Positions 15,712-58,366 of a stretch of 64,000 nt of DNA are shown in pieces. The notes below the pieces were generated by a model, which had not been told where the DNA came from, did not search any database, and worked only from the letters and a program-made list of their open reading frames with translations. Position 1 is the stretch's first letter. Each line of letters opens with the position of its first letter. The stretch lies in contig NZ_CP061800.1 in NCBI RefSeq assembly GCF_017377395.1, positions 3,429,633-3,493,632 of the forward strand. Direction: 5' to 3'. The stretch is from Desulfonema magnum (lineage in GTDB: Bacteria > Desulfobacterota > Desulfobacteria > Desulfobacterales > 4be13). Made by a program: the position numbers and the translations under genes.

Positions 15712-17865
<2,154 letters not shown>

Positions 17866-30829: not shown

Positions 30830-31140
30830 GATGCTTTTTCGCAAATTTTTCCGGAGTGCGAAAAATGCTTTTTCGCCAGTCTCTCCGGAGTGCGAAAATG
30901 CTTTTTCGCCATTTTCTCCGGAGTGCGAAAATACTTTTTCGCAAATTTTTCCGGAGTGCGAAAATGCTTTTTCGCCATTTTATCCGGAGTGCGAAAATAC
31001 TTTTTCGCAAATTTTTCCGGAGTGCGAAAATGCTTTTTCGCCATTTTATCCGGAGTGCGAAAAATACTTTTTCGCAAATTTCTCCGGAGTGCGAAAATGC
31101 TTTTTCGCAAATGCAAAAATAAAATTTTTGCACTCCGGAT
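30830..31140. repeat. tandem array B: ~9-10 alternating ~33-34 bp units (CCGGAGTGCGAAAATGCTTTTTCGCC... / ...ATACTTTTTCGCAAATTTTT)
   Basis: CCGGAG spacing 34/33/33 measured. Motif is the reverse-orientation relative of the array-A hairpin arm. Confidence 0.9.
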
Positions 31141-31147
31141 TTATGTC

Positions 31148-32854
31148 TCATTCCTCGGTTTTCCCTCTTATTCCGAGGCTTTCTGCAATTGCCATGATTT
31201 TTGCCACAAAAACAGCTAACGAGTCAAAATTCATGTCGCTGTTACCTGTCTGAAGCACTTTAAGTTCATGAATTTCCGGCAGTTGTGCTGCCAAGTCAGG
31301 GAGCCTCTTAATAAGGCGGCGCATCAGGTCACGGTCATTAATCAGATTATGGATTTCCTGCTTGGATCGGGAGATGTTGATTTCCCTTTCCATCTGGGCG
31401 GTTTTGACACGATTGGCTTGTTCCTCCAGTTCCAACTGAACCTGTTTTTCCTGTTGCCGACGAAGCAAAACAGCTTCCAGCGCTTTTGTCTGTATCTGAT
31501 TCGCTTGTTCCTGAAGCTGTAATTTCAATTCCGCTTCCTGCTTTCTAAGGGTCTTTTCACGTTCAATACGCTCCTGTTGAGACGTTGTCTTCATCACAGC
31601 AACACGGGTATCTTCGGCCATAGCGTGTAAGACCTCTTCAGTCTGCAATGTTTTTTCCCGGGCAGCAGCCTCCTTGTCGAGACGGAATATTTCCAACTGT
31701 GTTTCCTGAGATGTTTTCGCTGTCCAAGCTTCAATTCGTTTTTCTGATTCCTGTTTTGCCAGAGTGGTTTGTTCCTCAAGCTGAATTTTCTTTTGAAAGG
31801 TTTCCTGTTCCTTGACAAAACGCTGTGATTCTTCCGTGAGTTTCAGTTCCAACGCTTCTGTCTGCTTAGTTTGCTTAATGCGTTCAATTGCGGCCATGGC
31901 CTCGGCTTCACGGGTTTCGGCTGACTCACGGATTTCCAGCTCTTTTTGACGGACTTCGCTTTTCATCATAAGATGGCTTGTGCGGGCTGCTTTTTCCTGC
32001 TGATGACGAAAAGGGGCCTGTAAATCCTGCCACAGCCGTTGTGAACTGACCAAAGCCTCTCTGATCTGCACGGTGACGATTTTTATCCCCAGTCCCTCCT
32101 CTTCCCCTGATCCCTCAGTCTGCTGATTGCGTCCTTCGGTCACGGCTTTGAGGCGGGTGGTGAGTTCTTCAATAACCGGTGCTTTGTCTGTTAAGACCTC
32201 CTCCACACTCATTGTGGCGATTTTATCTTTGATGGCTGCTTCGGCCTGCTCGCCCAATTGTGCATTGACAATCCCCAGCGGATCACGATTATCAGAAAAG
32301 TCAAGTTTGCGATAGGCCACGGAAAAATCATCAATCTGCCATTGCACATAAGCCAGCACATTGATGCCCTGTTTCTCTTTGGTAATACAGTTCGCGACAA
32401 CGCCAATGGTCTGCATCGCGGCCGGTACGACCAGATACGCATCTGTATTGGGTTTGTAACGGAAAGATGTGCCCAGTCCGATGGTCACAGGGTCTTTATG
32501 CCCGATGCGTGTATGAATCACATATGCGTTTGGCGGAACAATGATCCGCCTCCAAAACCAGCGTCCTGTCTCCCGCACCCGAATCGGCTCTTTTTCCAGT
32601 TGGAGTTCCTCAGAGGTCTTCAGTCGGGTTCCCGGTATCTGACTTTGCGGGGACGCGAACTGAGGAGCCGAAGAAGGAGTCTTTTTTTTATAAGAAGCTG
32701 CTCTTTCCCCCTTATCGGCCACTTCTGTTAAATTCCCTGCTTCTGAATCCAAATCCATATCAAAAGATAATTCCTCTAATTCACCTTCAGAGGCAGGTTC
32801 CCGTAGCATGATATTCTGTTCCTTAAAGACATCTGCGGCTGCTTTACGTTTCAT
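31148..32854 (-). CDS. flotillin-like SPFH/band-7 domain protein with long EA-rich coiled coil
   Basis: 568 aa; SPFH-type core (RWFWRRIIVPPNAYVIHTRIG...VLAYVQWQIDDF) followed by ~300 aa of heptad-rich E/K/Q sequence; AGAGGA RBS. Confidence 0.75.
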   Translation of the reverse strand: MKRKAAADVFKEQNIMLREPASEGELEELSFDMDLDSEAGNLTEVADKGERAASYKKKTPSSAPQFASPQSQIPGTRLKTSEELQLEKEPIRVRETGRWFWRRIIVPPNAYVIHTRIGHKDPVTIGLGTSFRYKPNTDAYLVVPAAMQTIGVVANCITKEKQGINVLAYVQWQIDDFSVAYRKLDFSDNRDPLGIVNAQLGEQAEAAIKDKIATMSVEEVLTDKAPVIEELTTRLKAVTEGRNQQTEGSGEEEGLGIKIVTVQIREALVSSQRLWQDLQAPFRHQQEKAARTSHLMMKSEVRQKELEIRESAETREAEAMAAIERIKQTKQTEALELKLTEESQRFVKEQETFQKKIQLEEQTTLAKQESEKRIEAWTAKTSQETQLEIFRLDKEAAAREKTLQTEEVLHAMAEDTRVAVMKTTSQQERIEREKTLRKQEAELKLQLQEQANQIQTKALEAVLLRRQQEKQVQLELEEQANRVKTAQMEREINISRSKQEIHNLINDRDLMRRLIKRLPDLAAQLPEIHELKVLQTGNSDMNFDSLAVFVAKIMAIAESLGIRGKTEE

Positions 32855-32995
32855 TTTACATTTCCTCTGTGAATGTTAATGAACCTGATTTTTGCCAGTA
32901 CTCCGGAAAACATCCCGGACAGAGTTACAAACCTCGCCCCCTGAGCCTCCGCCGGCTCCTGAGCTTGTCGAAGGACACCAATGATTGGCAAAACA

Positions 32996-33910
32996 TCACT
33001 TTCCGGCAGGTTTCAGTTTCCAAAGCTTGGTGTTTCTGTAGATACCCGCTTCTGTGATGTGATAGCCCCCGACTTGCCGGCGTTTCATTTTTCCCAAGGT
33101 TCTGCTGAGTCTGATCTTCTGGCTTTTTTTACTGCCTTTGCCAAGATCAAACGAAATATCATTGTCAATGATCATCTGACGCAGATAATGCGAGTCAACC
33201 GCGTCCTCACCATATTTTTCCCACCACATATTGACAAAATCAAGAAAAAAGTCATTTTCTTTTTTCTGGTTCTCAGGCAGCGAACTCGGAGGAGGTGCTG
33301 AAATCCGGGCTTCAGAAAGATAACCGGGGCGGACAACCTCCAGAAAATTCACGCCTGTGGTCTCCTTTGTGATGCGGTTCGCTGTCAGCCTTGCCTGATG
33401 ATCATCTGTAATTCCTGCCAGATTAGCTGCCTCAATCGCCACTTTGAATCTTCTCACGCTCAGATCAAACTGATCTCCGGTGACATGACGCGCCTCAAGC
33501 TTTTCCTTCATATTGAAATAGTCTCTGACCATCTGCTTGTACAGTTGCCTGGCAAGCGGGGTTTGAAGGAGTTTGCAAAGAAGCGCATAGCCCTGACGGG
33601 AAAACAGATAAATATATTCACTGCGGTTAAGCGCGTTCTTTGTATAAAAATTCAGAAGAAAATCATATAATTGGTCGTTATCGTTCTGAACGATAACGGA
33701 TTTCAGGTTAAGAATGTCAACTTTTTCGTCAAACCAGTCAAGGTTTTTATTGATGACTTCATTAATGTGCATGAGTTCTCTTTCATGCAGTTCCGCAATT
33801 TGCTTTGCAAGAATACAGGGCTGATTGTCTCCGAACCCGCCGTAAATCTTTTTTACGGCATGATTGTTAATTGTCACAATTTCGTTACCCAACGTCAGTT
33901 CATTCATCAT
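32996..33910 (-). CDS. phage regulatory protein, Rha/ORF6N-like antirepressor N-terminal domain
   Basis: 304 aa; N-terminus VTINNHAVKKIYGGFGDNQPCILAKQIAELHERELMHINEVINKN fits the Rha/ORF6N pattern; GAGGAGA RBS. Family call is tentative. Confidence 0.5.
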   Translation of the reverse strand: MMNELTLGNEIVTINNHAVKKIYGGFGDNQPCILAKQIAELHERELMHINEVINKNLDWFDEKVDILNLKSVIVQNDNDQLYDFLLNFYTKNALNRSEYIYLFSRQGYALLCKLLQTPLARQLYKQMVRDYFNMKEKLEARHVTGDQFDLSVRRFKVAIEAANLAGITDDHQARLTANRITKETTGVNFLEVVRPGYLSEARISAPPPSSLPENQKKENDFFLDFVNMWWEKYGEDAVDSHYLRQMIIDNDISFDLGKGSKKSQKIRLSRTLGKMKRRQVGGYHITEAGIYRNTKLWKLKPAGK

Positions 33911-33976
33911 AAAAGCAGTCTCCTCTCTGCGTGAACCCGCGGTAAATTTTTCTTACGGGATGATTGTTAATGATTG

Positions 33977-34231
33977 TTAATCATTACTGGCAAAGGCATT
34001 TTTTCTATAAAAATTCAGAATAAAATCATATAATTGTTCGTTATCGTTCTGAACGATAACGGATTTCAGGTCAAACAACAGGCACTCGTTACGAGGCTCT
34101 GCCTCCCGTATAAAAAATCTGTTTTTTTTTGATTTTATCATGCCTGAGTCTCTTAGAGCGTGTTTGAAAAGTAAAGAATATGAGTAATCATAAGTGGCTG
34201 ATTTTTTTGCCACGAAGGCACGAAGGTTCAC
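33977..34231 (-). pseudogene. duplicated fragment of the Rha/ORF6N-like gene
   Basis: ...LFDLKSVIVQNDNEQLYDFILNFYRKNA matches residues ~70-100 of the 32996-33910 product. ~100 bp of DNA around 33990-34075 duplicates 33640-33720, including the cgttatcgttctgaacgataacg palindrome. Confidence 0.5.
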
Positions 34232-34520
34232 GAAGTCTCTTTATGGCTGATTTTTTGCCACAAAGACACGGAGGCACGAAGGTTCACGAAGTCTCTTTGT
34301 GGCTGATTTTTTGCCACGAAGACACGAAGGTGCGAAGGTTCACGAAGTCTTTTTGTGGCTGATTTTTTGCCACGAAGACACGAAGGCACGAAGGTTCACG
34401 AAGTCTCTTTGTGGCTGATTTTTTGCCACGAAGACACGAAGGTGCGAAGGTTCACGAAGTCTCTCTGTGTCTCTTTGTGTCTTCGTGCCTTTGTGGCTGA
34501 TTTTTTTGCCTCGAACACAC
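34190..34520. repeat. tandem array C: ~6 copies of a 49-56 bp unit (GGCTGATTTTTTGCCACGAAGACACGAAGGCACGAAGGTTCACGAAGTCTCTTTGT) with internal CACGAAG heptamers
   Basis: GGCTG spacing 49/56/56/56 measured. Confidence 0.85.
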
Positions 34521-34567
34521 GAAGGTTCACGAGGTCTCTTTGTCAGTTCGGAAGCACGTCAGATTCG

Positions 34568-35074
34568 TCAATCAAAACCGATAATAACATTCTTGTTTTT
34601 AAAATGCGGCAGCAATGCCTCCAGGGACCCGCCCTTTTCTGCATGGGCAATTCGGATTTCATCGGCCAGCTCCAGAATGAGTCTGTTTCTTATCTCTGCC
34701 CGCGCCGAGGTTATCCATTTCACAGACGCGTCAAAAGGGGAAAGGATTAAAAGCCGGTTTTGTCCCAGAGCTGTTTTTATTTCCGGTTCCCATCGTTTTT
34801 TCATGCCCCGGGCCAATGCGAGAATCATGGGCTGTTTGCCTTTTGCGAGGATTTGAAACACATCCTTTTCTATCTGGGAATGAAAACATGACATAACGCA
34901 GTTGCCCTTTTTCCGCTGCTCAATGGCCCAGTCGTAAGCTTTTACGATCATCTCCGCGGGGCATTTGCGGGAGCAGAGAAACGCTGTTTTACGAACATTT
35001 AAGATCGCTTTGTTTCCGAGAAAATGTAAATCAGAGGGTTTCATTGGTGTTCCTGTGTTTAAACGAGTCTTCAT
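34568..35074 (-). CDS. DprA/Smf-like Rossmann (SLOG) domain protein, short stand-alone form
   Basis: 168 aa; colinear with the DprA core (…SCFHSQIEKDVFQ…ILALARGM… ~ SGLARGID block; RNRLILELADEIRIAHAEKGGSLEAL ~ RNRIIAGLS…SGSLITA). The start may be the internal Met at ~35044, which has an AGGAA RBS. Confidence 0.6.
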   Translation of the reverse strand: MKTRLNTGTPMKPSDLHFLGNKAILNVRKTAFLCSRKCPAEMIVKAYDWAIEQRKKGNCVMSCFHSQIEKDVFQILAKGKQPMILALARGMKKRWEPEIKTALGQNRLLILSPFDASVKWITSARAEIRNRLILELADEIRIAHAEKGGSLEALLPHFKNKNVIIGFD

Positions 35075-35103
35075 TTGCAGCTTTCAAACGGGCTGCTTTC
35101 TAC

Positions 35104-35565
35104 TCAACTATCCGGAGGATGCCAGCCAGCCATCACCCAGTAACTTCGGACCTTTAAAGGATCAGAACTCAGGCAGAGCGTCTCAACTGTGGCCCGCCCA
35201 GTCGGTGTCCGTCCGATAATACAAATACCATCCTCACTCCATCGGAAATGCTGAGACCATACCTGAATACGCGGGTTGAAAAGAGGGACAATCTGATGTG
35301 CTTCCGGATCCGATGATTCAGTTTTATTCCCCTTATGACGATTACAGAAAGGACATGCCAGCCATAAGTTGGATTCATCATCACTGCCCTGTTTCGAGAC
35401 AGGGATGATGTGTTTTGTAGCAGCAGGTTTGCAAGCCCCCGCCAAGCCCCGTGGGGGCGGCATATTTGTAGCAGCAGGTTTGCAAGCCCCCGCCAAGCCC
35501 CGTGGGGGCGGCATATTTGTAGCAGCAGGTTTGCAAGCCCCCGCCAAGCCCCGTGGGGGCGGCAT
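35104..35565 (-). CDS. HNH endonuclease domain protein whose N-terminus is array-D sequence (probably 5'-truncated/overrun)
   Basis: C-terminal HNH motif HIIPVSKQGSDDESNLWLACPFCNRHKGNK. The expected upstream CxxC zinc knuckle is absent. The first ~50 aa are (MPPPRGLAGACKPAATN)x3 translated from the 51-bp array. Confidence 0.6.
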   Translation of the reverse strand: MPPPRGLAGACKPAATNMPPPRGLAGACKPAATNMPPPRGLAGACKPAATKHIIPVSKQGSDDESNLWLACPFCNRHKGNKTESSDPEAHQIVPLFNPRIQVWSQHFRWSEDGICIIGRTPTGRATVETLCLSSDPLKVRSYWVMAGWHPPDS

Positions 35566-36745
35566 ATTTGTAGCAGCAGGTTTTCAAGCCCCCGCCAAGC
35601 CCCGTGGGGGCGGCATATTTGTAGCAGCAGGTTTGCAAGCCCCCGCCAAGCCCCGTGGGGGCGGCATATTTGTAGCAGCAGGTTTTCAAGCCCCCGCCAA
35701 GCCCCGTGGGGGCGGCATATTTGTAGCAGCAGGTTTTCAAGCCCCCGCCAAGCCCCGTGGGGGCGGCATATTTGTAGCAGCAGGTTTGCAAGCCCCCGCC
35801 CAGCCCCGTGGGGGCGGCATATTTGTAGCAGCAGGTTTGCAAGCCCCCGCCCAGCCCCGTGGGGGCGGCATATTTGTAGCAGCAGGTTTTCAAGCCCCCG
35901 CCAAGCCCCGTGGGGGCGGCATATTTGTAGCAGCAGGTTTTCAAGCCCCCGCCAAGCCCCGTGGGGGCGGCATATTTGTAGCAGCAGGTTTGCAAGCCCC
36001 CGCCAAGCCCCGTGGGGGCGGCATATTTGTAGCAGCAGGTTTGCAAGCCCCCGCCCAGCCCCGTGGGGGCGGCATATTTGTAGCAGCAGGTTTGCAAGCC
36101 CCCGCCAAGCCCCGTGGGGGCGGCATATTTGTAGCAGCAGGTTTTCAAGCCCCCGCCAAGCCCCGTGGGGGCGGCATATTTGTAGCAGCAGGTTTGCAAG
36201 CCCCCGCCCAGCCCCGTGGGGGCGGCATATTTGTAGCAGCAGGTTTGCAAGCCCCCGCCAAGCCCCGTGGGGGCGGCATATTTGTAGCAGCAGGTTTGCA
36301 AGCCCCCGCCAAGCCCCGTGGGGGCGGCATCTTTGTAGCAGCAGGTTTTCAAGCCCCCGCCAAGCCCCGTGGGGGCGGCATATTTGTAGCAGCAGGTTTG
36401 CAAGCCCTCGCCAAGCCCCGTGGGGGCGGCATATTTGTAGCAGCAGGTTTGCAAGCCCCCGCCCAGCCCCGTGGGGGCTGCATATTTGTAGCAGCAGGTT
36501 TGCAAGCCCCCGCCAAGCCCCGTGGGGGCGGCATATTTGTAGCAGCAGGTTTGCAAGCCCCCGCCAAGCCCCGTGGGGGCGGCATCTTTGTAGCAGCAGG
36601 TTTTCAAGCCCCCGCCAAGCCCCGTGGGGGCGGCATATTTGTAGCAGCAGGTTTGCAAGCCCTCGCCAAGCCCCGTGGGGGCGGCATATTTGTAGCAGCA
36701 GGTTTGCAAGCCCCCGCCCAGCCCCGTAGGGGCTGCATGTTCGCA
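35400..36745. repeat. tandem array D: ~26 copies of a 51-bp unit (AAGCCCCGTGGGGGCGGCATATTTGTAGCAGCAGGTTTGCAAGCCCCCGCC)
   Basis: Period 51 measured (GTAG at 35416 and 35467). The unit is a multiple of 3 and has a stop only in one plus frame, hence the many long spurious ORFs. Variant positions (TTTTCAAG, CCCAGCC, CATCTTTG) are scattered in a patchwork pattern. Right junction ...GCATGTTCGCATTACTACT. Confidence 0.95.
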
Positions 36746-36799
36746 TTACTACTGCCGGATTTGGCAATCTGCCAGGATTATGAAAGGCCATAATTTTTT

Positions 36800-37018
36800 T
36801 TAAGCGGCCTGATAAATTGCCGGACGGAAACAGGGTTTGGGAATCGGCCTGTTTTCTGAGATTGCAGCTTGAAGCCAGGCTGCCTTTGCCCTCAGCACTT
36901 CTTTCAGAGCGTCTTCCGGTGTCTCTCCGAATGCAGAGCAGTATTTCAAATCCGGTATGTCCGCGATATATCCTTCATCTTCCTCACTGTAAAATATGTT
37001 GATATGGTAATCTTTCAT
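36800..37018 (-). CDS. hicB: type II antitoxin HicB
   Basis: 72 aa MKDYHINIFYSEEDEGYIADIPDLKYCSAFGETPEDALKEVLRAKAAWLQ, HicB/UPF0150 fold pattern; 4-bp overlap with hicA. Confidence 0.8.
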   Translation of the reverse strand: MKDYHINIFYSEEDEGYIADIPDLKYCSAFGETPEDALKEVLRAKAAWLQAAISENRPIPKPCFRPAIYQAA

Positions 37019-37272
37019 ATATCTTCCTCCATGCTCAGATTATGGCGTTCTACAATCTGTAAAAATTGTTTTATCTGGTAGGGCTTTGTTTTGCCCTTAA
37101 TATCCTGAAGGTTTATCAGTTCAGGCACGTCAGGGTGTATAAATATATGATGACTGCCGCTGACACGGTTTAAATGAAAGCCGAAGGATTCAATACATGC
37201 CACGGCTTCTGAAAAATGAATATTTTTGCCCCCTGAGAGAATCTTTTGTAATATTTTCTGTTTCTTTGTCAT
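37015..37272 (-). CDS. hicA: type II toxin HicA (mRNA interferase)
   Basis: 85 aa; ...FGFHLNRVSGSHHIFIHPDVPELINLQ matches the HicA (YcfA) GSHHxFxHP signature. Confidence 0.8.
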   Translation of the reverse strand: MTKKQKILQKILSGGKNIHFSEAVACIESFGFHLNRVSGSHHIFIHPDVPELINLQDIKGKTKPYQIKQFLQIVERHNLSMEEDI

Positions 37273-37333
37273 TCTTTAATCTTCCTGTGCCTATCGTCCG
37301 GTCATATAAGAAAAGGACTGAAGAATCTCCTTC

Positions 37334-38008
37334 TTATAATCCTCTTCTTATCCGTTCATATAGTGTCTGAAAGCTGAACGTAACCGATTCGCCGTTTATC
37401 TTTTTATACGGTGGAAACGGCTGAATCAGTTTATCCGGTGATTCTTTAGTCTTGTATTCACTATATTCGTTTATCCGAAGCCAGTTTGAACCTTTTTCGC
37501 TTTGATCAAAATAATGTTCTGCATAAACCTGCGAACTCTTATTGATACAGTAAATGACGATATTTTCTTTACCCCTGTTTTCAAGTAATGCCCATACATC
37601 TCCTGAAAAATTCGGGTCATCCTTATAATACCATTGCTGGTTCAGGATAACAAGCTCCTGTTCAAACAGCGATTTAAACTTACTTCTCTGATAGTTAAGC
37701 GGTTTTAATACGTCATCTTTTCAGTAATAAACTCTGTCAAATACATTACCCCCGTATGATCTGCGGTGGGTCTCATAATGTCGGGAAATCAGGGCATAGG
37801 CATGATTGATGCTTTTGGCTTTCTCTTTTAAAGCAGTAATATTACATTCGCAGTCCGAAAGCTCGGCTTCTTTGGTACAGCGTAAATTAATATACAAGTC
37901 TTCTTTTAAACAGATTTCGACAAAGGAGCGCTGTTTACGGAGATACAGCGGCTTTTTTATGATACCGAGTTTCTTCGCATCTTCATTACGGGGGCTTATC
38001 TGAACCAT
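37334..38008 (-). pseudogene. hypothetical protein gene interrupted by an in-frame TGA at 37721-37723 (frame continues to TAA at 37334)
   Basis: MVQISPRNEDAKKLGIIKKPLYLRKQ...VFDRVYY[TGA]KDDVLKPLNYQRSKFKSLFEQELVILNQQWYYKDDPNFSG...TFSFQTLYERIRRGL; no recognisable family. Confidence 0.45.
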
Positions 38009-38079
38009 CAGAAAAGTATTTTCGGCTAAAAACAGCTTTTTGACTTCCCTCTCCAGAATCGCCAGCTTTTTTTGATCAG

Positions 38080-38220
38080 TTACACAAAAAAGGGAACAAT
38101 CAGATCGCCGACAGTGCCGTCTTCTAATTTAGGCAAATCCCCGCCGTAGAAAAATTTTAACTCTCCATTTACTACTTTCACAGGAATTTTGACGGTCTTT
38201 TTAAATGGATCCGGTGTCAT
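38080..38220 (-). CDS. small ORF (46 aa, MTPDPFKKTVKIPVKVVNGELKFFYGGDLPKLEDG...)
   Basis: Strong GGAGGAG RBS. Its reading continues into the 38008 ORF only after a frameshift, so it may be the 5' part of the same disrupted gene. Confidence 0.4.
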   Translation of the reverse strand: MTPDPFKKTVKIPVKVVNGELKFFYGGDLPKLEDGTVGDLIVPFFV

Positions 38221-38280
38221 GTCTCCTCCGATTTCCTTTTTTAAAGTGTTTCGTTGTTCTAAACATCTTCAGATACGGAC

Positions 38281-39760
38281 GGATATCCGCATGAGCAGCA
38301 GATTTGCAAGCCCCCGCCAAGCCCCGTGGGGGCGGCATATTTGTAGCAGCAGGTTTGCAAGCCCCGCCAAGCCCCGTGGGGGCGGCATATTTGTAGCAGC
38401 AGGTTTGCAAGCCCCCGCCAAGCCCCGTGGGGGCGGCATATTTGTAGCAGCAGGTTTGCAAGCCCCTGCCAAGCCCCGTGGGGGCGGCATATTTGTAGCA
38501 GCAGGTTTGCAAGCCCCCGCCAAGCCCCGTGGGGGCGGCATATTTGTAGCAGCAGGTTTGCAAGCCCCCGCCAAGCCCCGTGGGGGCGGCATATTTGTAG
38601 CAGCAGGTTTGCAAGCCCCCGCCAAGCCCCGTGGGGGCGGCATATTTGTAGCAGCAGATTTGCAAGCCCCCGCCCAGCCCCGTGGGGGCGGCATATTTGT
38701 AGCAGCAGGTTTGCAAGCCCCCGCCAAGCCCCGTGGGGGCGGCATATTTGTAGCAGCAGGTTTGCAAGCCCCCGCCAAGCCCCGTGGGGGCGGCATATTT
38801 GTAGCAGCAGGTTTGCAAGCCCCCGCCAAGCCCCGTGGGGGCGGCATATTTGTAGCAGCAGGTTTGCAAGCCCCCGCCAAGCCCCGTGGGGGCGGCATAT
38901 TTGTAGCAGCAGGTTTTCAAGCCCCCGCCAAGCCCCGTGGGGGCGGCATATTTGTAGCAGCAGGTTTTCAAGCCCCCGCCAAGCCCCGTGGGGGCGGCAT
39001 ATTTGTAGCAGCAGATTTGCAAGCCCCTGCCAAGCCCCGTGGGGGCGGCATATTTGTAGCAGCAGGTTTGCAAGCCCCTGCCAAGCCCCGTGGGGGCGGC
39101 ATATTTGTAGCAGCAGGTTTGCAAGCCCCCGCCAAGCCCCGTGGGGGCGGCATATTTGTAGCAGCAGGTTTGCAAGCCCCCGCCAAGCCCCGTGGGGGCG
39201 GCATATTTGTAGCAGCAGGTTTGCAAGCCCCCGCCAAGCCCCGTGGGGGAGGCATCTTTGTAGCAGCAGGTTTGCAAGCCCCCGCCAAGCCCCGTGGGGG
39301 CGGCATATTTGTAGCAGCAGGTTTGCAAGCCCCCGCCAAGCCCCGTGGGGGCGGCATATTTGTAGCAGCAGATTTGCAAGCCCCCGCCAAGCCCCGTGGG
39401 GGCGGCATATTTGTAGCAGCAGGTTTGCAAGCCCCCGCCAAGCCCCGTGGGGGCGGCATATTTGTAGCAGCAGGTTTTCAAGCCCCCGCCCAGCCCCGTG
39501 GGGGCGGCATATTTGTAGCAGCAGGTTTGCAAGCCCCCGCCAAGCCCCGTGGGGGCGGCATCTTTGTAGCAGCAGGTTTGCAAGCCCCCGCCCAGCCCCG
39601 TGGGGGCGGCATATTTGTAGCAGCAGGTTTGCAAGCCCCCGCCAAGCCCCGTGGGGGCGGCATATTCGCATTACTACTACAAATATGCCGCCCCTACGGG
39701 GCTTGGCCGGCCCGGTATGATGAATGCTACAAATATGCCGTCCCTACGGGACTTCTCAAA
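38281..39760. repeat. tandem array E: ~27 copies of the same 51-bp unit as array D, ending in two inverted partial units (39669-39760)
   Basis: Same unit, orientation and right-junction sequence (GCATATTCGCATTACTACT) as array D. Inverted terminal copies caaatatgccgcccctacggggcttggcc / caaatatgccgtccctacgggac. Confidence 0.95.
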
Positions 39761-39824
39761 CACGCTCTGAAAAAAGGATTGAAAAATCCGCTTCTTATAC
39801 GAAATCCGTGTAGCGAAATTATTA

Positions 39825-42800
39825 TTATTTCAACTCCTTCCCCATCCGATACTTGATATCGTAGTTGATAATGAAATCGAGTTCTTCCTCTGTGAAGCCG
39901 TAGTGCTGGGCGAGGACTTTGTCTATTTCGTCTATGATGGGTTTGGAATATTTTGGATATATACATTGAATTTTTAATTTGCCCCATTTTTTATAATACA
40001 TTTCTATCTCTTTTGAATGATGATTGAAATCATTCATCAATTTTTTCCTAAACTCTGAAAGCAGGCCAATTGTTTGTGAATTGGTTTTAGAAATATTAAC
40101 TTTCACTCCAAAAACTTCACGTTTATTTAAATTTCTACAGTCAGATCCAATTGTTAATAGCCAGAAAAAAAGTGAAGAATTTAAAATACAAAGGAATGCG
40201 TCACGAGATTTTTCGCCATTAAATGAAAGTGTTTTTAGTTCCGATGGTTCACGTTTATTTCCTGACTCATCAAATATTGATGGAATAAAATCTAAGACTT
40301 GAACAAAACCACTTAGTTTGCGTGTATAATATAATAGAGACGAAGAATGCGGATCAAGATAATGCTGCAATGTTTTTTTCTCTTTAATAACCTTGTCCAA
40401 AATTGACGATCCTACTCTACTACCTATTTTGGGTATCAAGCCATTCAGAATAAAATCATTACAAATTTCATAAGACAAGCAGTCAAATAAACAATAACGA
40501 ACCTCGGTATTCCATTTATTATATTTTGTAGAGTAAAGCATACCTTCTGTACATTTCTTTTTATGCAATAAGACTATTGACAAACGGATATGCTCTAAGC
40601 CTTCAAATAGCTTTCCCGGTCGATCATTATAGTTACTTATTATAACATCACCGTTGCTTTGCCACATTTTTTGAAGCTTGGAATACCTATCTGTGCAAAC
40701 AGACGCGACAGGTATAATGAGACCAATTTTTCCAGATTCATTGCATATATTAACAGATTGTTCATAGCAATACGCATATAAATTGGCACAGCTTTCAGTA
40801 AGATAACTTTTTACCGTGTACTTATTCCTTATCGTTTTGTACTCCACATACGGCGGATTCCCAATAATCACATCAAACCCGCCTCTGTCCGCCACAATGC
40901 TGTAGAACTCCGCAAACCAGTGAAAGGGCTGATGAGATGCCAGCCATTTCTCATATTGCCTTTTCTGCTTTTCCGAGTCAATATTATAAACAGAAGCAAG
41001 ATAGGTATTCAGCTTGTCATTGAGAGCGCCAAGTCTTTTTGTCACTTCCTGTTTGGCGGCCTTGAAACTCTCATTGTTCATATCTTCAATGAGTTGAGCA
41101 TCTTTAAACCTTACAAACGCCTTGCTGGTCAGCCCGCACTCTTCCTTGAATTCTTCCAGTTTTTCCTGAGCAAACATCCCCTCTCTGTCTCTGACAGCCT
41201 CCATCAGCTCCGTTTCCGTGGCAAACCCCACGAGCGTATTTCCGGACCGAATATTAAAATCAATATCCGGAAGCGGCTCCAGGCCATAATTTGGCTTGCG
41301 GGGATTCATATCCACCGAGGCAACAATCCTGAGAAACAGCCTCAGCCTGGCGATTTCCACCGCCTCCTTCATAATATCCACGCCATAGAGATTGTTCAAA
41401 ATAACAGACTTGCAGATAAAATACTCCCGGCTCGGATGATCCGCAGCATTGACCTCCTTCAGCACCTTTTCAAAACACTTATCTTTTTTCGAGCTTTCCT
41501 CGGCAAACTGCTCCATCCGCTCAATACAGCCCTCATACATCGGCTCAAGAATATTCAGTGCGGCAAAGAGAAACGCCCCGGAGCCGCAGGTGGGGTCTAA
41601 AATTGAAAGCGGAGGACGATCTTTCTCGTTCGTATTTTGCGGACGCGTATAACCGGCAACCGTCTTATAAAATTCCCTGATAAGTTTCGGATCATCCGTA
41701 TTTGCAATCAGATCCGCTGTGAACTGGCGGATATTCAGATTATAAGTGATAAAATCATTGATTTCAGTGATCTCCCCGTTTTCAATCTTCTGCCTCACTT
41801 CCCCATAACGGGATCTGCGCTCAATCGTCTCCCGCCAGATTTCAGTGGGCAGGGCATACGCTTCAGGCGCGGGCGTGTTCCAGTGTTTGCGGCGTTCCAG
41901 CAAATCCGGCGCGGACGTGTCCAGCCCCACAGCAATGTTCTCAGGCAGGTCCAGTTCCACACCTTTTTTCACAGCATCATAAATATAAGCATCCCCGCTG
42001 GTTTTCAACATCTGCCATATCTCGCCATCTGGCTTGAACGGTTTTGCATACCTGCGTCTCACCGCATCAAAAACAAAGGGGATAATACAATTTTTGCCAA
42101 TATATTCCGTAATATCCTCTTTGGTGTAGTACGCGCCCATTGCAGCCCGGTCATTAATATATTTCTCAAAAATATATCCGATAACATCCGGGTTGATATC
42201 CTTGCCGCTGGCCTCGGCACGCATATCCAAAAGCCAGTTCCATTGATCAAAAAAATTGAAAACCCGCTCAAAAACCGCATCTCTGATCTGGATATCATCA
42301 AACAGAAGTTCCAGCACATGCACATCAAACAGCCCCCCGTTCAGATAAGGAATACGGCCCAGTTCCACCGACACAACCCGCCTGTCCTCGGGCTTGCCAA
42401 GCCCCTGATGAAACAGCTCAAGCAGAAATGTCCGGTAAAAATTGTAAAACTGATTTTCCCCGGCCTTTTCCCGGGTTTCCCTCAGCTTATTCTGAAGATA
42501 ATTCACATCCTGATTCAGATACCCTTTTTTCTGGATAAAATAGCAGAACATCAGGCGGCTGAACATCACAGACACATACCACTGCTTGTTTTTATTCTCC
42601 TTATCCGGCAACGCGTCATCAATCCCCTCAACAGATTGCAGAAAAGCCGTGTGATGTTTCTTGAACTCAGTATAGAATTTTTTAGTCACCTTTTCCGAAT
42701 TCTTTGCAAAATTCTCCATGACCCGTGCCTTCACATCCACAAGGGTGACACTTTCCTCCTCGTCCAGCGTGAACAAAAGTCCCTTCAGCCTTTGGAAAAG

Positions 42801-43172
42801 CCCCTCACAGTCCTGATGAGAATAATACGAAACCTCCCGGACCTGTCTGGGTTTGCCCTGTTCTCTGAGCGCAAGCTGCCAGACCTGTCGGGACCGGGCA
42901 GCATCCGTATAAATGATAAGATGCTCAAAATACGTTTTCGTGACAACATGCTCAATCTGCCTGCGGACACGGCTTAACGGAACATTGCCATTGCTCTCAG
43001 GCGGACAATACAGAACAACAAACCCCTTTTTCTCAACCACCCCCGCAAGCTCGAAAACCTCATTTCCCATCGCCACAGGCAGTGAATTATTAAAATGATC
43101 CCATCCCAGCTCATTAAAAAGCCTTTTAAAATCAAACGCATTAAGATACCGAGTGAATTTTTTCTTATTCAT
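39825..43172 (-). CDS. large N6-adenine DNA methyltransferase, PglX/Eco57I-like (gamma-class)
   Basis: 1115 aa; SAM motif I LDPTCGSGAFLFAALN and catalytic motif IV FDVIIGNPPYV. ~450 aa N-terminal and ~350 aa C-terminal regions are unassigned. Confidence 0.85.
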   Translation of the reverse strand: MNKKKFTRYLNAFDFKRLFNELGWDHFNNSLPVAMGNEVFELAGVVEKKGFVVLYCPPESNGNVPLSRVRRQIEHVVTKTYFEHLIIYTDAARSRQVWQLALREQGKPRQVREVSYYSHQDCEGLFQRLKGLLFTLDEEESVTLVDVKARVMENFAKNSEKVTKKFYTEFKKHHTAFLQSVEGIDDALPDKENKNKQWYVSVMFSRLMFCYFIQKKGYLNQDVNYLQNKLRETREKAGENQFYNFYRTFLLELFHQGLGKPEDRRVVSVELGRIPYLNGGLFDVHVLELLFDDIQIRDAVFERVFNFFDQWNWLLDMRAEASGKDINPDVIGYIFEKYINDRAAMGAYYTKEDITEYIGKNCIIPFVFDAVRRRYAKPFKPDGEIWQMLKTSGDAYIYDAVKKGVELDLPENIAVGLDTSAPDLLERRKHWNTPAPEAYALPTEIWRETIERRSRYGEVRQKIENGEITEINDFITYNLNIRQFTADLIANTDDPKLIREFYKTVAGYTRPQNTNEKDRPPLSILDPTCGSGAFLFAALNILEPMYEGCIERMEQFAEESSKKDKCFEKVLKEVNAADHPSREYFICKSVILNNLYGVDIMKEAVEIARLRLFLRIVASVDMNPRKPNYGLEPLPDIDFNIRSGNTLVGFATETELMEAVRDREGMFAQEKLEEFKEECGLTSKAFVRFKDAQLIEDMNNESFKAAKQEVTKRLGALNDKLNTYLASVYNIDSEKQKRQYEKWLASHQPFHWFAEFYSIVADRGGFDVIIGNPPYVEYKTIRNKYTVKSYLTESCANLYAYCYEQSVNICNESGKIGLIIPVASVCTDRYSKLQKMWQSNGDVIISNYNDRPGKLFEGLEHIRLSIVLLHKKKCTEGMLYSTKYNKWNTEVRYCLFDCLSYEICNDFILNGLIPKIGSRVGSSILDKVIKEKKTLQHYLDPHSSSLLYYTRKLSGFVQVLDFIPSIFDESGNKREPSELKTLSFNGEKSRDAFLCILNSSLFFWLLTIGSDCRNLNKREVFGVKVNISKTNSQTIGLLSEFRKKLMNDFNHHSKEIEMYYKKWGKLKIQCIYPKYSKPIIDEIDKVLAQHYGFTEEELDFIINYDIKYRMGKELK

Positions 43173-43194
43173 AATTTTCAGCTTTCAATTTATC

Positions 43195-43400
43195 AGTTTA
43201 ACCTCGTTAACCTCGTTAACCTCGTTAATCTCATTCCCACGCTTCGCGTGGGAATGCAGAAGGGACGCTTCGCGTCCCGTGGCTGGACGGATTTGCGTCC
43301 GGCCGCCGGACCGATTCGGGACGCGAAGCGTCCGCCGGACCGATTCAGGACGCGAAGCGTCCGCCCTGCATTCCCACGCGAAGCGTGGGAACGAGAGAAA
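43195..43400. promoter_or_regulatory. GC-rich nested palindrome cluster between the helicase and methyltransferase genes
   Basis: (CCTCGTTAA)x3, perfect hairpins CATTCCCACGC-TTC-GCGTGGGAATG and GGGACGC-TTC-GCGTCCC, 2x 32-bp direct repeat GCCGGACCGATTCGGGACGCGAAGCGTCCGCC, and a closing CATTCCCACGCGAAGCGTGGGAA. A related hairpin lies at 58195-58225. Confidence 0.5.
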
Positions 43401-43415
43401 CGAGAGAACTAATTC

Positions 43416-46400
43416 TCAATTCTCAATTATTCCCATGGAGCAGACAATCTGGGGATTTTTATTCTTTGTCTCTGTATTGCTGATGATGCAGAGTTTTCCA
43501 TCTTCGCGCAGGGTGATGACAAGATTTATGAGCGCCTCATCAGAAATGCCTGTTTTCAATTGGCGGCTGAGGGTTTCCCTGGCATATTCCCGCAGCGGAT
43601 ATTTATAAATATCCTCAACAGCTTTTTTCAGCGAATCCGTGACAAACAGAGGATCGGCATTTTTCTCAACATATTGCGAAAGCCGCATATACATGCGGTA
43701 ACGTGCCGCGGTTTTTCTGCCAAGCTGCCCCCCGATGCTGTCCTCCACTTTTTTGATATGCCTGACACCGAACTCAACCAGCTTGTGATGATTTTCAGAC
43801 CTGGGCAGGGCAGGCACATCTGGCTCACATTTTACAGCTTTCAGAATTTCAAACTGGGACTGGGTGACAATATTCCTGTCCTCATCCACCCACGCGAGCA
43901 TATCATTATCATACGCAGTTCTTGTGTAAACCACAGCCCCGGTTCTGGTTCCTTTGCCAGCTTTTTTGGCCGCGTAAGCAACATCAGGCAGGTCCGGGAT
44001 CATGTTTTTCAGTTTCGGATTCGCGTCTGTTGCATTTTTCCATATCTGATACGCATACGAGGCAAGATCAATCTCAATGTCTTCCTCATCATCAAAAATC
44101 CCTGCTTTTTCATTATACAAATCCCTTATGTTTATGGGATCGCCGTCAAAAAACGTTTCATCAGACCCGATGGTCTCGGCATTTTCCCGGATTCGCTGCC
44201 GCAGTCTTGCCCGGAGGTTGATGATGTTTTCAATACCATCTTCCGGCAGAAACGAATAGCAGAGAATCTCAGGCGAGTGCTGACCGATCCGGTCAATTCT
44301 GCCTGCCCGCTGAATCAGGCGGATGATGGCCCACGGAAGATCATAATTCAGGACAATATGGGCGTCCTGCAAATTCTGACCTTCGCTGAGAACATCCGTG
44401 GTGATCAGCACCCGTATCTCCTGAGATTCAGGGATTTTCTCGAATTTCTCATTGCTTTCCGGGCTGAACCGGTGAGCAAAAGCCGTGGGGTTTTCCGTGT
44501 CGCCGGTCACACATGCCACCCTGTCAACGCCTCTGTCCTTCAATGCGCTGAACAAGTAATGAGCCGTATCAGAAAACTGTGTGAATATCAGCACTTTGTC
44601 ATTTTTATGCGTTTCAGCACAAAGTTTGTAAAGTGCGTTGAGCTGGCGGTCGTCCGCGATGTTCCAGTTTTTTGCGATATTGAGTATTCTGAGCAGTGCG
44701 CGGCTGTCTGCCTCAAGATGTTTTTTAAGTTTCCGAGAAAAAAGGCTGCTTCTGATCCAGTCGTATTTTTGGGCCTGTCTGTCAAAAAGATACATGTGAA
44801 ATGCTTCTGCATGATGCATATATTCCTGCTCGGAAAACAACAAGTCCATATTATTTTTCTCTTCTGTGTCCTCATCCGCATACATAAACGCATCAATCAG
44901 ACCTGCCTCCTGCTTGCCAACGGGAAAGGGTTTGTCATTTTCTATGGCATATAGGAACAGATAATTTCTCAGAATATGCCGGCTCACAGACAGCAAAAAC
45001 GAGTACCCGCTGCTTTCAAGGCGTTTGAAAAGATTGGTCCGGGCAAATCCTTTCAGCCTTGCCCCGGCTCTGCCCAGGTTTTTTTGGATTCTGACCTCTT
45101 TGTCCGTGGGAATCAGCTCGGTTTTTTTTGACTGATACTGATCCTGTCCCAGACCATAGCGGGGAAGGTTCAGACTGTCAATGAGATCAACAACGGTTTC
45201 AGAGTAAAGCCTTGCATACTGATCGGTCGGATCATCCGGATCAAAATTATATTCCACTTTTCTGGGAACACGCTCCGGAAAATAGGAAGTTGTGCCATCA
45301 GGGAACAACAGATATTTCCGGCCGTCATGCTCGTCAATTTTCGTATAATTGTCTTTGATGAAACTGCGGGTTCGTCTCACCAGGAACAAACGCATAAGCT
45401 CGTTCCAGTCCTCGGAAAAAAGGCTGTTTTCAAACGCGGCAAGGCTGTTTTCACTGACCTGATGATTTGCCAGAAACTGAACACGGCCCCCCTCGCTTTC
45501 AATGAGACGTTCCGGACGGATTCCCAGATTTTCATCCTCATTCATAAACAGCCTCAGTTGGCTGGAAAGGTCAAGATAAGATTTGTTGTATGGCGTGGCA
45601 GTGAGCAATATCACCTTGCTGTCATTGAGGTGGATATATTCATAAACCGCACGGTACCGCTTGCCCTGACGATTTCTCAGGTTATGGCTTTCATCTATGA
45701 TGACCAGCCGGTACCGCCTTTCGCGAGGGAGTTTTGACTGTGCCTGGGTGACGGACAGCACCTTTGCCCGGAGCTGATATTTGTGCACATAATCCTCCCA
45801 CATGACCACAAGGTTTTTGGGACTGATGATCAGGGTTTCAAGAAAGAAATCCTCCTCAAAGACCTTGGCAAGGGCGGCCGCGGTAATGGTCTTTCCCAGG
45901 CCCACCACATCGCCGATTATCACACCGCCTCTTTTATGGAGATGATGGGCCGCGACTTTTACCGCATTGGCCTGATAAGGCAGCAGCGCGTGTTTGAACT
46001 CACGAGTGAGGTTAAATTCCGATATCCCCGCGCGGGCTTCTCTGGACAAATGGTAGGCAATCTTCAAATAAATATGATACGGCGGTATGAGATTTTCCGA
46101 AGCCCAGCTGGTATCTATGATTTCGGCAAGTTCTTTTGTGATGTCAATGCACCAGCGATCTTCCCAGCGGTCCTGAAACCATCGGGACAGTTTCATCGCG
46201 GCATCCTGCTCAACAACATCTGTGTTGAGTTCGCCCTGTCTGGACACGCCCGCAAGGGTCAGATTGCTGCTCCCCAGGAAACCAATGATCGGGCTGTTGT
46301 AATCTTCCCGATAAATCAGATACAGTTTGGCATGAAGGGGATGACGGAGATGCAGTTTTACAATGACTTTGCCTGATTTTAACTGCTGCGAAAGCCTGCG

Positions 46401-46775
46401 AAGGGCTTTTTCATCCTGATTGTTGGGGATCCCGATGGTGAGCTGCTCCCGCAGATTTCTTGCCAGCAGCTTTTTTAACTTCAATGCTTCTGCATTGTCC
46501 AAAGTGTTCCCGTCATTATCCTCTGAAAAATGCGCACGGAGCAGCTCGTCAGAAAGCCTCTGCATACCGATCAGGACCCGGCAATGATAGAAATGATCAT
46601 CATCAAATGCTTCAGGGAGATAATCCCCGGGGAGATTTTCGACGTTTTTATATAACTTTGACCAGCCCCGAAGATTGAAATAGCCAATGCAGAAATCCGC
46701 ACGTCTGGCCCTGTCCAAGGTGTTGTTCAGACCAGTTTCCAAAAATTTTTCAATATTGTCAAAGATGGTGGGCAT
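43416..46775 (-). CDS. fusion protein: N-terminal PLD-family nuclease domain + SNF2-family (SF2) helicase/ATPase
   Basis: 1119 aa; PLD HKD motif HAKLYLIYREDYNSPIIGFLGSSNLTLAG; SNF2 motifs GDVVGLGKTITAAAL (I), VIIDESHNLRN (II), LLTATPYNKSYLDL (III), LIQRAGRIDRIGQ (VI). AGGAGC RBS. Confidence 0.85.
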   Translation of the reverse strand: MPTIFDNIEKFLETGLNNTLDRARRADFCIGYFNLRGWSKLYKNVENLPGDYLPEAFDDDHFYHCRVLIGMQRLSDELLRAHFSEDNDGNTLDNAEALKLKKLLARNLREQLTIGIPNNQDEKALRRLSQQLKSGKVIVKLHLRHPLHAKLYLIYREDYNSPIIGFLGSSNLTLAGVSRQGELNTDVVEQDAAMKLSRWFQDRWEDRWCIDITKELAEIIDTSWASENLIPPYHIYLKIAYHLSREARAGISEFNLTREFKHALLPYQANAVKVAAHHLHKRGGVIIGDVVGLGKTITAAALAKVFEEDFFLETLIISPKNLVVMWEDYVHKYQLRAKVLSVTQAQSKLPRERRYRLVIIDESHNLRNRQGKRYRAVYEYIHLNDSKVILLTATPYNKSYLDLSSQLRLFMNEDENLGIRPERLIESEGGRVQFLANHQVSENSLAAFENSLFSEDWNELMRLFLVRRTRSFIKDNYTKIDEHDGRKYLLFPDGTTSYFPERVPRKVEYNFDPDDPTDQYARLYSETVVDLIDSLNLPRYGLGQDQYQSKKTELIPTDKEVRIQKNLGRAGARLKGFARTNLFKRLESSGYSFLLSVSRHILRNYLFLYAIENDKPFPVGKQEAGLIDAFMYADEDTEEKNNMDLLFSEQEYMHHAEAFHMYLFDRQAQKYDWIRSSLFSRKLKKHLEADSRALLRILNIAKNWNIADDRQLNALYKLCAETHKNDKVLIFTQFSDTAHYLFSALKDRGVDRVACVTGDTENPTAFAHRFSPESNEKFEKIPESQEIRVLITTDVLSEGQNLQDAHIVLNYDLPWAIIRLIQRAGRIDRIGQHSPEILCYSFLPEDGIENIINLRARLRQRIRENAETIGSDETFFDGDPINIRDLYNEKAGIFDDEEDIEIDLASYAYQIWKNATDANPKLKNMIPDLPDVAYAAKKAGKGTRTGAVVYTRTAYDNDMLAWVDEDRNIVTQSQFEILKAVKCEPDVPALPRSENHHKLVEFGVRHIKKVEDSIGGQLGRKTAARYRMYMRLSQYVEKNADPLFVTDSLKKAVEDIYKYPLREYARETLSRQLKTGISDEALINLVITLREDGKLCIISNTETKNKNPQIVCSMGIIEN

Positions 46776-46848
46776 GAGTTGCTCCTGGTATCAGGTTTGA
46801 TAGAAAAGGACGTGAATTCAGGTAAATCCCTGTTTTCATGTTTTCATT

Positions 46849-47775
46849 TCAGCATTCCTTGTGGCTAATGTTCGGGCTGCTGAGATTACTGATGGTATTT
46901 TTTCCATAAATATGACCCACGAACCGAATCAGTGCATAAAGAACCAAAACAGGTATGATGACCGTCTGAAGAAGAAAAACAATAATCAGATTCATGGTGT
47001 ATGTGGCATACTTTGATATTTTGTCCTTCAGAAAAGATATCTTTTTTTTAATATCAACAATTTCTTTTGTGTTTTCATACATTGTTTTCAAGGTATCCAG
47101 ATAACCCGGATCATCTGCTTTGCTTTTATCATCTTGTTGAGCCTGACTTGTGTCCTTGATTTCACGACTGACTTCTTCCAGGGACTGAACAGATTCGGTA
47201 TATTTTTTTTTCAGAAAAAGATTGTATGTTTTTTCACTGACAATCGCGGTTGCCGGTATGCAAAACCGGATTACCACGGACACAAGTATCAGTTTATAAC
47301 CCGCGGACACCAAATTTATTTTTGAAAATCGGGACATCCAAATTCCAATAAATATGATCACCATGGAAAAAGACAGTAAAATTTTGAAGCCAAACCATGT
47401 TCCCATCTCCATGAGAATTTTTTGGATACCCAACGACGTGATACTGACCAGCATGACCCAGGAAAAACGCTCCACCAGATCATTCACCGGGTCCAATGCT
47501 TCTCCCACAGCCAGCTGAACCCCGATCCCTGCCGGAGAAACCGCAATATCCGTACCCTGAGCCACAGAAATGACACCGTTTATGCCCCTGACAATTGCAA
47601 AGGTATAAATGGCTCTTTTAATGGCTTCATCAAAATAAATATTTCCTTTTTCATCCAACTCCTTGAAAAATTTTTTTTGAAACAAAGCATCAAGAAGCGA
47701 TGTATATGACAATACACCGATAACAAGCACGACCGCACTCAGCAACACTTTCTTATGTATCTGTTTCAATTGCAT
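46849..47775 (-). CDS. hypothetical multi-pass membrane protein, first gene of the helicase/methyltransferase block
   Basis: 308 aa, ~5 TM helices plus a K/E-rich cytoplasmic coiled segment; AGGAGGA RBS; 74 bp upstream of the PLD-SNF2 gene on the same strand. Confidence 0.5.
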   Translation of the reverse strand: MQLKQIHKKVLLSAVVLVIGVLSYTSLLDALFQKKFFKELDEKGNIYFDEAIKRAIYTFAIVRGINGVISVAQGTDIAVSPAGIGVQLAVGEALDPVNDLVERFSWVMLVSITSLGIQKILMEMGTWFGFKILLSFSMVIIFIGIWMSRFSKINLVSAGYKLILVSVVIRFCIPATAIVSEKTYNLFLKKKYTESVQSLEEVSREIKDTSQAQQDDKSKADDPGYLDTLKTMYENTKEIVDIKKKISFLKDKISKYATYTMNLIIVFLLQTVIIPVLVLYALIRFVGHIYGKNTISNLSSPNISHKEC

Positions 47776-49345: not shown

Positions 49346-49507
49346 CTGATTGTAACGGATTTTGGGGAGGCCCGGGGTTTTTTCCGCGGTATCGGGCAAT
49401 ATGACAGCGGACAGGAGGATGAGACGGATGTCCCGGCCCGGAATATCCGGTAAATCCTTAAATCCGATGTCATATTCGCGGGCCTCCCCCGAATCCGTTA
49501 TAATCAA
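49346..49507. mobile_element. MITE-like element, copy in reverse orientation
   Basis: CTGATTGTAACGGATTTTGGGGAGGCC ... GGCCTCCCCCGAATCCGTTATAATCA; internal sequence is the reverse complement of the 4481 copy. Confidence 0.7.
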
Positions 49508-58219: not shown

Positions 58220-58366
58220 ACAAGACCCGACATCCGGGGCAGTTTTTCCTCCGAAACTTGAAACTTGAAATCCGGAGAGTCAGCGGATTCTCACGGATGC
58301 CAAGTTTCAAATTTCAAGTTTCAAATTTCAAGTTTCAACTTCCAACTTTCAACTTCCAACTTCCAA
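58220..58366. repeat. octamer microsatellite block (GAAACTTG / CAAGTTTCAAATTT / CAACTTCCAACTT units) between convergent genes
   Basis: ccgaaacttgaaacttgaaatcc ... caagtttcaaatttcaagtttcaaatttcaagtttcaacttccaactttcaacttccaacttccaactt; preceded by the hairpin tctcattcccacgccgcggtgggaga. Confidence 0.8.

Follow-up and report, generated by a model that had tools for sequence, protein, structure and literature searches.

What are the two arrays of a 51-bp unit that lie 1.55 kb apart in the chromosome of the bacterium Desulfonema magnum, and how did one short sequence come to be repeated there more than fifty times? We addressed this question in a stretch of 64,000 nucleotides (RefSeq contig NZ_CP061800.1, positions 3,429,633 to 3,493,632), which we refer to as the window and number from its first letter, and we designated the two arrays D and E. 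The answer we consider probable is that D and E are non-coding minisatellites, i.e., hyper-expanded head-to-tail clusters of a module resembling repetitive extragenic palindromic (REP) sequences, and that they carry a known kind of selfish repeat to an extreme and are not a new system.

Array D (35414–36738, plus strand) consists of 26 full 51-bp units placed head-to-tail, each made up of a REP-like module and an 18-nt linker, and array E (38294–39666, plus strand) consists of one 5'-truncated unit followed by 26 units in the same orientation as those of D. Tandem Repeats Finder returned a period of 51 for both arrays, with 26.0 copies, 97% matches, no indels and a score of 2503 for D, and 26.9 copies, 97% matches and a score of 2627 for E, in agreement with an original prediction, made by inspection of the letters, of about 26 and about 27 copies having a common unit, orientation and right junction. 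A single E unit, at 38341, has 50 bp instead of 51. The 33-nt core of the unit occurs 54 times in the window (≤3 mismatches), compared with an expectation of 0 from 100 shuffles. Three variant sites are common to both arrays (17G>T, 30A>C and 50A>C), two are private to D (25C>T and 45G>T) and two to E (13G>A and 26C>T). Within D, units 17–21 carry a variant string identical to that of units 22–26, a 255-bp (five-unit) internal duplication that indicates multi-unit unequal exchange.

The arrays run in the same phase, stop at the identical unit position and continue with an identical 14 nt, which gives them a common 19-nt right junction, GCAT(G/A)TTCGCATTACTACT (36735–36753, plus strand, GCATGTTCGCATTACTACT for D; 39660–39678, plus strand, GCATATTCGCATTACTACT for E). 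We found no similarity between the left flanks of D and E, nor between their right flanks beyond this junction. The original prediction had explained the likeness as a segmental duplication of an array together with its flank; the common origin is clear from the phase, the end point, the 14 nt and the three common variants, but the shared flank amounts to the 14 nt only, which correspond to the central loop of a palindromic repeat cluster. Gene conversion or recombination between two repeat clusters explains the sharing equally well, and the segmental duplication has only loose support. Array E is followed by two inverted modules, where inverted partial units had been predicted, at 39673–39710 and 39723–39760 (both minus strand), the second having the stem GTCCC/GGGAC and lying 50 nt from the first; each scored 50 bits against the covariance model R1 described below, and the last E unit and the first inverted module together form a stem of ~28 bp (z = −6.1), which would give E a long palindrome at its end. 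The alternating orientation typical of bacterial interspersed mosaic elements (BIMEs) was not observed in the arrays, as all 53 array modules are on the plus strand and only the two modules after E are inverted.

Each 51-bp unit can be divided into a 33-nt module, GCCAAGCCCCGTGGGGGCGGCATATTTGTAGCA, and the 18-nt linker. The module reads AAG, a GC-rich 5-bp hairpin with a G(T/C)(A/G) loop, and CG(G/A)CAT(A/G)TTTGTAGCA; the stem of the hairpin shows compensating changes between copies and is followed by CGGCATATTTGTAGCA. A GTAG conserved at ≥90% (alignment A1) lies 9–10 nt 3' of the hairpin, and a further GTAG shares bases with the loop and with the 3' stem. A scan with the 24-mer AAGCCCCGTRGGGGCGGCATATTT against one genome per species yielded 20 loci, in metagenome-assembled genomes (MAGs) of Desulfobacterales, Desulfatirhabdium, Verrucomicrobiia, Poribacteria and Bacteroidota. 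In sister copies near these hits the tail CG(G/A)CAT(A/G)TTTGTAG was constant, and the stems differed from one another but were complementary within each copy (GCCCC/GGGGC, GCTCC/GGAGC, GTCCC/GGGAC, ACGCC/GGCGT, GCGCC/GGCGC and ATTCC/GGAAC). When 42 diverse module copies were aligned, 95.7% of cells were paired, a percentage inflated by the pre-filtering of the set for copies with at least 4/5 pairs, and changes on both sides were seen at 4 of the 5 pairs. There were 33 such both-side-changed cells, compared with 6.5 in shuffles, none of the 500 shuffles reaching 33, and with 1–5 when the partner was slid by 1–3 columns. The variety of complementary stems on one conserved tail is genuine despite the pre-filter.

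A covariance model built from the 42-copy alignment (R1) identified 60 module copies in the window: the 53 in the arrays and 7 others, all of the latter in contexts resembling miniature inverted-repeat transposable elements (MITEs). Across all loci the head-to-tail spacing of modules peaked at 51–52 nt, in a histogram skewed both by the pattern used for scanning (N{10,30}) and by the many copies it contains of a single MITE family. Folding of the unit had been put forward as a check on the original prediction; a single unit folded no better than shuffled sequence on either strand (z = −0.36 and +0.12), and neither did a two-unit dimer on the plus strand, strong structure being given by inverted module pairs only.

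The terminal repeat of the MITEs in the window is CTGATTATAACGGATTT(R)GGGGA, and one complete element (59915–60272, plus strand; terminal inverted repeat CTGATTATAACGGATTT..., 8-bp target duplication TATTTTTT) contains modules at 60121(+), 60172(+) and 60211(−), the first two forming a direct pair 51 nt apart. The left part of an element of the same family (1419–1600, plus strand) contains modules at 1445(+) and 1498(+) and is directly followed by a different array, of a 92-bp unit. The unit's core had been predicted to occur in MITE-like elements in these two places, which we can confirm with element starts at 1419 and 59915. It had also been suggested that the arrays arose from an internal MITE segment, and two observations bear this out. 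On the reverse strand, the right flank of E and the interior of the MITE at 59915 are colinear, both running in the order module, TTCATCAT(A/G)CCGGGC, module, loop, inverted module. In addition, the Desulfobacterales MAG GMC2_bin_2_sub has MITEs in which one inverted module accompanies tandem 52-bp units, 1, 3 or 5 in number; these elements have the same intact terminal repeats as the D. magnum family and 8-bp target duplications (loci L008 and L010), and homology with the D. magnum linker can be recognised in the linker of their 52-bp unit. Another 60 loci, in which 2–4 tandem units are followed by an inverted module, came from a scan of metagenomes. We conclude that D and E are decayed or rearranged MITE derivatives.

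Two other features of the MITEs in the window may be recorded here. Three 162-bp MITE copies, two of them in direct tandem (4481–4812) and one apart (49346–49507), have the terminal repeats of the module-bearing MITEs and a different interior. Nested in the MITE at 59915–60272 there is also an insert (59960–60080) with two copies of a different palindrome (CCGGACGGGGTTTGCAACCCCGTCCGG), the core of which, GGTTTGCAA, resembles the linker of the 51-bp unit.

In other bacteria the module is associated with a transposase gene. Clustering of the ORFs (open reading frames) of 80 module-bearing loci showed one small protein to recur beside modules, at L004 (Verrucomicrobiia) and L036 (metagenome). This protein is an IS200-like Y1/HUH transposase, with matches to Pfam Y1_Tnp (80–91 bits) and NCBIfam transpos_IS200 (60–73 bits, cut-off 55). 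At L004 there are two direct modules before the Y1 gene and two inverted modules after it, the inner ones touching the start and stop codons, and at L036 the modules, four of them direct and four inverted, are set in 51-nt steps. Five further Y1 homologues (73–86% identical) were chosen by protein identity alone on long contigs, four from metagenome assemblies (groundwater included) and one from a Planctomycetes MAG. With R1 we found inverted modules ~0–80 nt from the gene ends in all five, usually as pairs 50–52 nt apart, and the Y1 gene is flanked by inverted modules in each of the seven contexts now available (L004, L036, L082, L084, L086, L088 and L089). A Y1 gene between inverted modules is the layout described for REP- and TIR-associated tyrosine transposases (PMC3733652, PMC2817692). 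The Y1 genes are placed between housekeeping genes, and one of them has identical neighbours in 18 contigs, a pattern that suggests one resident locus and not an insertion sequence present in many copies.

One of these loci also contains an array. At L082 the Y1 gene is followed by 3–4 modules in one orientation and then by a 51-bp unit repeated 9.4 times in the opposite orientation, with a linker unrelated to that of D. magnum. The module arrays with exact 51-nt steps beside Y1 genes occupy 2225–2705 of L082 and 474–909 of L036, which come from unrelated uncultured bacteria. An annotated 248-residue ORF of L082 (1968–2714) spans the module cluster and the array; nothing in Pfam matches it, and it is likely to be spurious.

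From these observations we propose the following history. The module is a member of a family present in several phyla. Elsewhere it flanks, as inverted pairs ~51 nt apart, an apparently single-copy IS200-like Y1 (HUH) gene in the layout known from REPs and REP-associated tyrosine transposases (RAYTs), the 'REPtron', and in Desulfobacterales it is also carried by a MITE that has terminal inverted repeats. This MITE already holds a direct pair of modules 51 nt apart, and in D. magnum these two copies would have been amplified to 26–27, most likely through slippage during replication or through unequal exchange between chromosomes that are sisters or siblings. The array with its 14-nt loop would then have come to occupy two sites 1.55 kb apart, via recombination or gene conversion, and the N-terminal part of an HNH gene would have been lost along the way. 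The 51-bp period would be inherited from the module pair that flanks Y1 genes and is also present within the MITE. The most economical mechanism of amplification is growth through slippage or unequal exchange, and the five-unit duplication in D supports it. We would not expect the arrays to have a dedicated cellular function beyond the general roles of REPs. The original prediction had reckoned with the possibility, as evidence against it, that the unit is a known family-specific REP/BIME element of related genomes, and this has largely turned out to be so: the core of the unit is a REP-type module that occurs across phyla and is tied to a Y1 transposase.

Several points weigh against this account. 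We recognised no MITE terminal repeats in the flanks of D or E, and a tblastn search found no Y1 transposase gene in the 64-kb window. The Y1 protein of the related loci scores as IS200-type and not as RAYT (NCBIfam REP_Tyr_transpos 32–35 bits, cut-off 80); its relatives in the PDB are TnpA proteins of the ISDra2 type, and E. coli TnpA-REP gave no match at E ≤ 0.01. The GTAG of a canonical REP abuts a longer stem than the 5 bp seen here, from which it is separated by 9–10 nt. The 26–27 copies of D and E are far above the 2–10 seen elsewhere, a comparison made with mostly short-read assemblies whose clusters may be collapsed. The pre-filter on the covariation set and the biases in the spacing histogram, given above with the respective numbers, belong on the same side.

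The regular 51-nt spacing raises the possibility that the arrays were built enzymatically. At the replication fork, a RAYT-like Y1 protein might cleave single-stranded DNA at an identical position of adjacent modules and rejoin it, so that each event would add or remove one 51-nt unit; the arrays would then have been made by the transposase and not by host recombination. This would fit the retention of the 51-nt period between distant taxa whose linkers differ, the 9.4-copy array directly beside the Y1 gene of L082, and the positions of three array ends (left and right of D, right of E), all within the same 2–3 nt of the conserved tail (CATA-TT-TGTAG). We nevertheless think it unlikely: no Y1 gene was found for D. 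magnum in the window, and the 255-bp duplication in D points to homology-driven exchange. Nor is a biochemical precedent known for tandem unit addition by Y1 enzymes, which counts against the idea. A wider form of it, about as improbable in our estimation, would have Y1 acting in register on 51-nt-spaced modules to build and resize arrays, with 51 nt as an enzymatic ruler; the whole family, including the Rfam motif Acido-Lenti-1, would then be the substrate of an uncharacterised domesticated branch of IS200-like proteins that generates bacterial satellite DNA. We give still less credence to the arrays being retained for a function, either as a multi-site platform for a nucleoid protein or gyrase, or as a structured RNA array that affects how the hicAB and restriction-modification transcripts are expressed or how stable they are. 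E. coli REPs bind integration host factor (IHF) and gyrase and stabilise the 3' ends of mRNAs, which counts in favour of a function; the minus-strand module resembles the 3' hairpin of Acido-Lenti-1 (12–24 bits), and read-through into the arrays is possible, as the flanking genes are all on the minus strand. However, the Rfam match stays under the gathering threshold (37 bits) and lacks the motif's 5' half, the folding of a single unit does not surpass that of its shuffles (see above), and we detected no promoter or terminator signal above shuffle expectation. Moreover, unit variants fall on stem and tail positions, and one of the arrays appears to have destroyed a gene.

A further concern was whether the arrays, while real, have the reported 26–27 units only as a consequence of expansion or collapse during assembly. 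Unit identity of 97% over 1.3 kb is hard to resolve with reads shorter than the array, and no independent contigs are on record for the flanking genes; a look-up of the exact proteins encoded by the restriction-modification gene, hicA, hicB and the PsyrA-like gene found none on record, and only UDP-glucose dehydrogenase was recovered, on a 1.6-kb contig. However, the order of the variants is irregular, differs between D and E and includes private variants, which is rare for simple collapse or duplication artefacts, and the record (8,027,777 bp) is that of a closed chromosome. We therefore judge an artefact of copy number to be improbable. [quoted passage not shown] The consensus unit is stop-free in five of six frames and its minus strand holds the ATG frame MPPPRGLAGACKPAATN, as had been predicted, and the arrays adjoin toxin-antitoxin and defence genes. 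On the other hand, the commonest variant, 17G>T, introduces a stop into the ATG frame in 11 of 53 units, a frameshift comes with the 50-bp unit, and the synonymous variant types number no more than 3 of 10, whichever frame is read. A chimeric five-frame peptide query against 5.8 billion proteins gave three weak matches, none of them an array; these are read-throughs of dispersed modules or MITEs. The 17-residue peptide that the original prediction had considered is thus not supported. We also reject a CRISPR, as the prediction had done, since there are no spacers and the repetition, at 97% identity, takes in the full 51-bp period, and we reject a ToxIN-like type III toxin-antitoxin system, since the gene after E is a pseudogene matching no toxin family and the neighbouring pair is a type II HicAB.

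Other candidate identities were examined and set aside. The whole window gave nothing in an Rfam scan at gathering thresholds, and permissive Rfam scans gave only chance matches of microRNA type and the weak match to Acido-Lenti-1. A replication origin and iterons were rejected, as the cumulative GC skew passes smoothly through the region with no turn, and a phage origin was rejected with 0 matches to the module in 2.9 million viral contigs. In Desulfonema papers other than the D. magnum genome paper we found no mention of these repeats.

The arrays are intergenic and lie within a defence island, in which the genes flanking D and E are all on the minus strand. On the left of D is the 3' remnant of an HNH endonuclease gene (35104–35413, minus strand), the Pfam HNH match of which starts at profile position 18, its 5' part being replaced by array D; the front of this gene appears to have been lost through D. 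Between them the arrays bracket hicAB and a disrupted ORF, as originally predicted: Pfam identified the hicB antitoxin gene (36800–37018, minus strand) and the hicA toxin gene (37015–37272, minus strand), and the ORF is a pseudogene of ~295 residues (37334–38220, minus strand) with one frameshift and one in-frame TGA, for which no Pfam or PADLOC match was found. On the right of E there is a type IIG restriction-modification gene (39825–43172, minus strand; PADLOC, 1223 bits) and an HKD+Snf2 helicase gene, and beyond the HNH remnant there is a PsyrA/DprA-like gene. As 1.3-kb direct repeats, D and E would be able to recombine, deleting or duplicating the hicAB segment, and instability of this segment within the defence island is predicted on that basis. 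The surroundings as a whole (31148–47775) are defence-island-like, with a flotillin-like gene (no family match), an ORF6N-domain protein, the PsyrA/DprA-like gene, the HNH remnant, HicAB, the type IIG gene and the HKD+Snf2 helicase, and the cassettes of this island are separated by arrays at 30831, 34211, 35414 and 38294. The array at 34211–34469 has a CACGAAG-rich 56-bp unit in 4.6 copies and separates the ORF6N gene region from the PsyrA-like gene.

The original prediction had also called satellite-like arrays of this size unusual. For this window that is only partly so, since ~11% of it (~7.3 kb of 64 kb) consists of tandem arrays, among them a 92-bp unit repeated 24.6 times (1604–3869; 2.27 kb, 93% matches) right after the truncated MITE whose left end is at 1419. 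The 92-bp unit contains a long palindrome and has TCCGGAGTGCGAAAAATGCTTTTTCGC in common with a 33/66-bp array at 30831–31112; it is a second, unrelated module that has also expanded into an array. Heptamer arrays are present as well. One, of GTTTCCA repeated 14 times (17410–17507), is within a CheA ORF (15712–17865, minus strand), between the Hpt and dimerisation domains, and others are intergenic (15539–15661, GTGTTAG repeated 17.6 times; 58300–58369; 53403–53433; 11555–11586). At 60650–62202, an IS110-family transposase gene (60862–62202) is preceded by an 89-bp repeat in 2.6 copies with TAACAC heptamer-like runs.

Taken alone, D and E are an extreme but ordinary repeat expansion in a large filamentous bacterium whose genome is rich in repeats. 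Of greater use is the identity of the unit, a REP-type module conserved across Desulfobacterota, Verrucomicrobia, Planctomycetes, Poribacteria and Bacteroidota. The family looks under-described, with its combination of a short hairpin and distal GTAG, 51-nt phasing, an IS200-like Y1 partner and carriage as a passenger by a MITE that has terminal inverted repeats. If this is true, it would supply a testable origin for the orphan Rfam motif Acido-Lenti-1, and a system for asking how REP clusters grow.

Among known systems, the mycobacterial interspersed repetitive units of variable number tandem repeat type (MIRU-VNTR) of Mycobacterium tuberculosis are alike in being intergenic arrays of ~51–77 bp units between co-directional genes whose copy number shifts by slippage or recombination, but they have no conserved hairpin-plus-tail module or transposase link, their units often contain small overlapping ORFs, and their copies are fewer. 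The BOX elements of Streptococcus pneumoniae (modular MITEs of the form boxA-boxB(n)-boxC) resemble the module-bearing MITEs in having an internal module of ~45–52 bp in variable tandem number, which for the latter is 1, 3 or 5 units in the related MAG and 2 in the D. magnum MITEs. Sequence and host are unrelated, however, BOX has no known link to a Y1 transposase, the copy numbers of boxB stay small, and D and E have lost their MITE ends. As regards Acido-Lenti-1 (RF01687), an RNA motif of unknown function (Weinberg et al. 2010; PMC2864571), the module, read as its reverse complement, agrees with the 3' half of the motif's consensus (CUAauuUAUgcCG-stem-UUC-stem-CU), although the array units reach only 12.2 bits and the best related copy (L002) 24.1 bits against the gathering threshold of 37, and only the 3' hairpin aligns, the 5' hairpin being absent.

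The nearest counterpart is the REP/BIME system with its RAYT (TnpA-REP) proteins, as known from E. coli and from the REPINs of Pseudomonas. It differs in that the stem of our module has only 5 bp with GTAG standing off 3' of the hairpin, and in that the Y1 protein of the modules falls with the IS200 type rather than in the RAYT clade. BIMEs alternate in orientation, whereas the module clusters are head-to-tail with a fixed period of ~51 nt, and D and E have 26–27 copies where the related clusters found elsewhere have 2–10; BIMEs of E. coli contain about a dozen REPs. The likenesses are a short GC-rich hairpin repeat with compensating stem changes and a conserved GTAG, the occurrence of copies singly, as inverted pairs and in clusters, and the flanking of a single-copy Y1/HUH gene by inverted copies, the inner of which overlap the gene ends. 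Clusters of repeats 'reiterated in tandem' were likewise described by Di Nocera et al. (2013; PMC3733652) in their account of 'REPtrons' and 'TIRtrons'.

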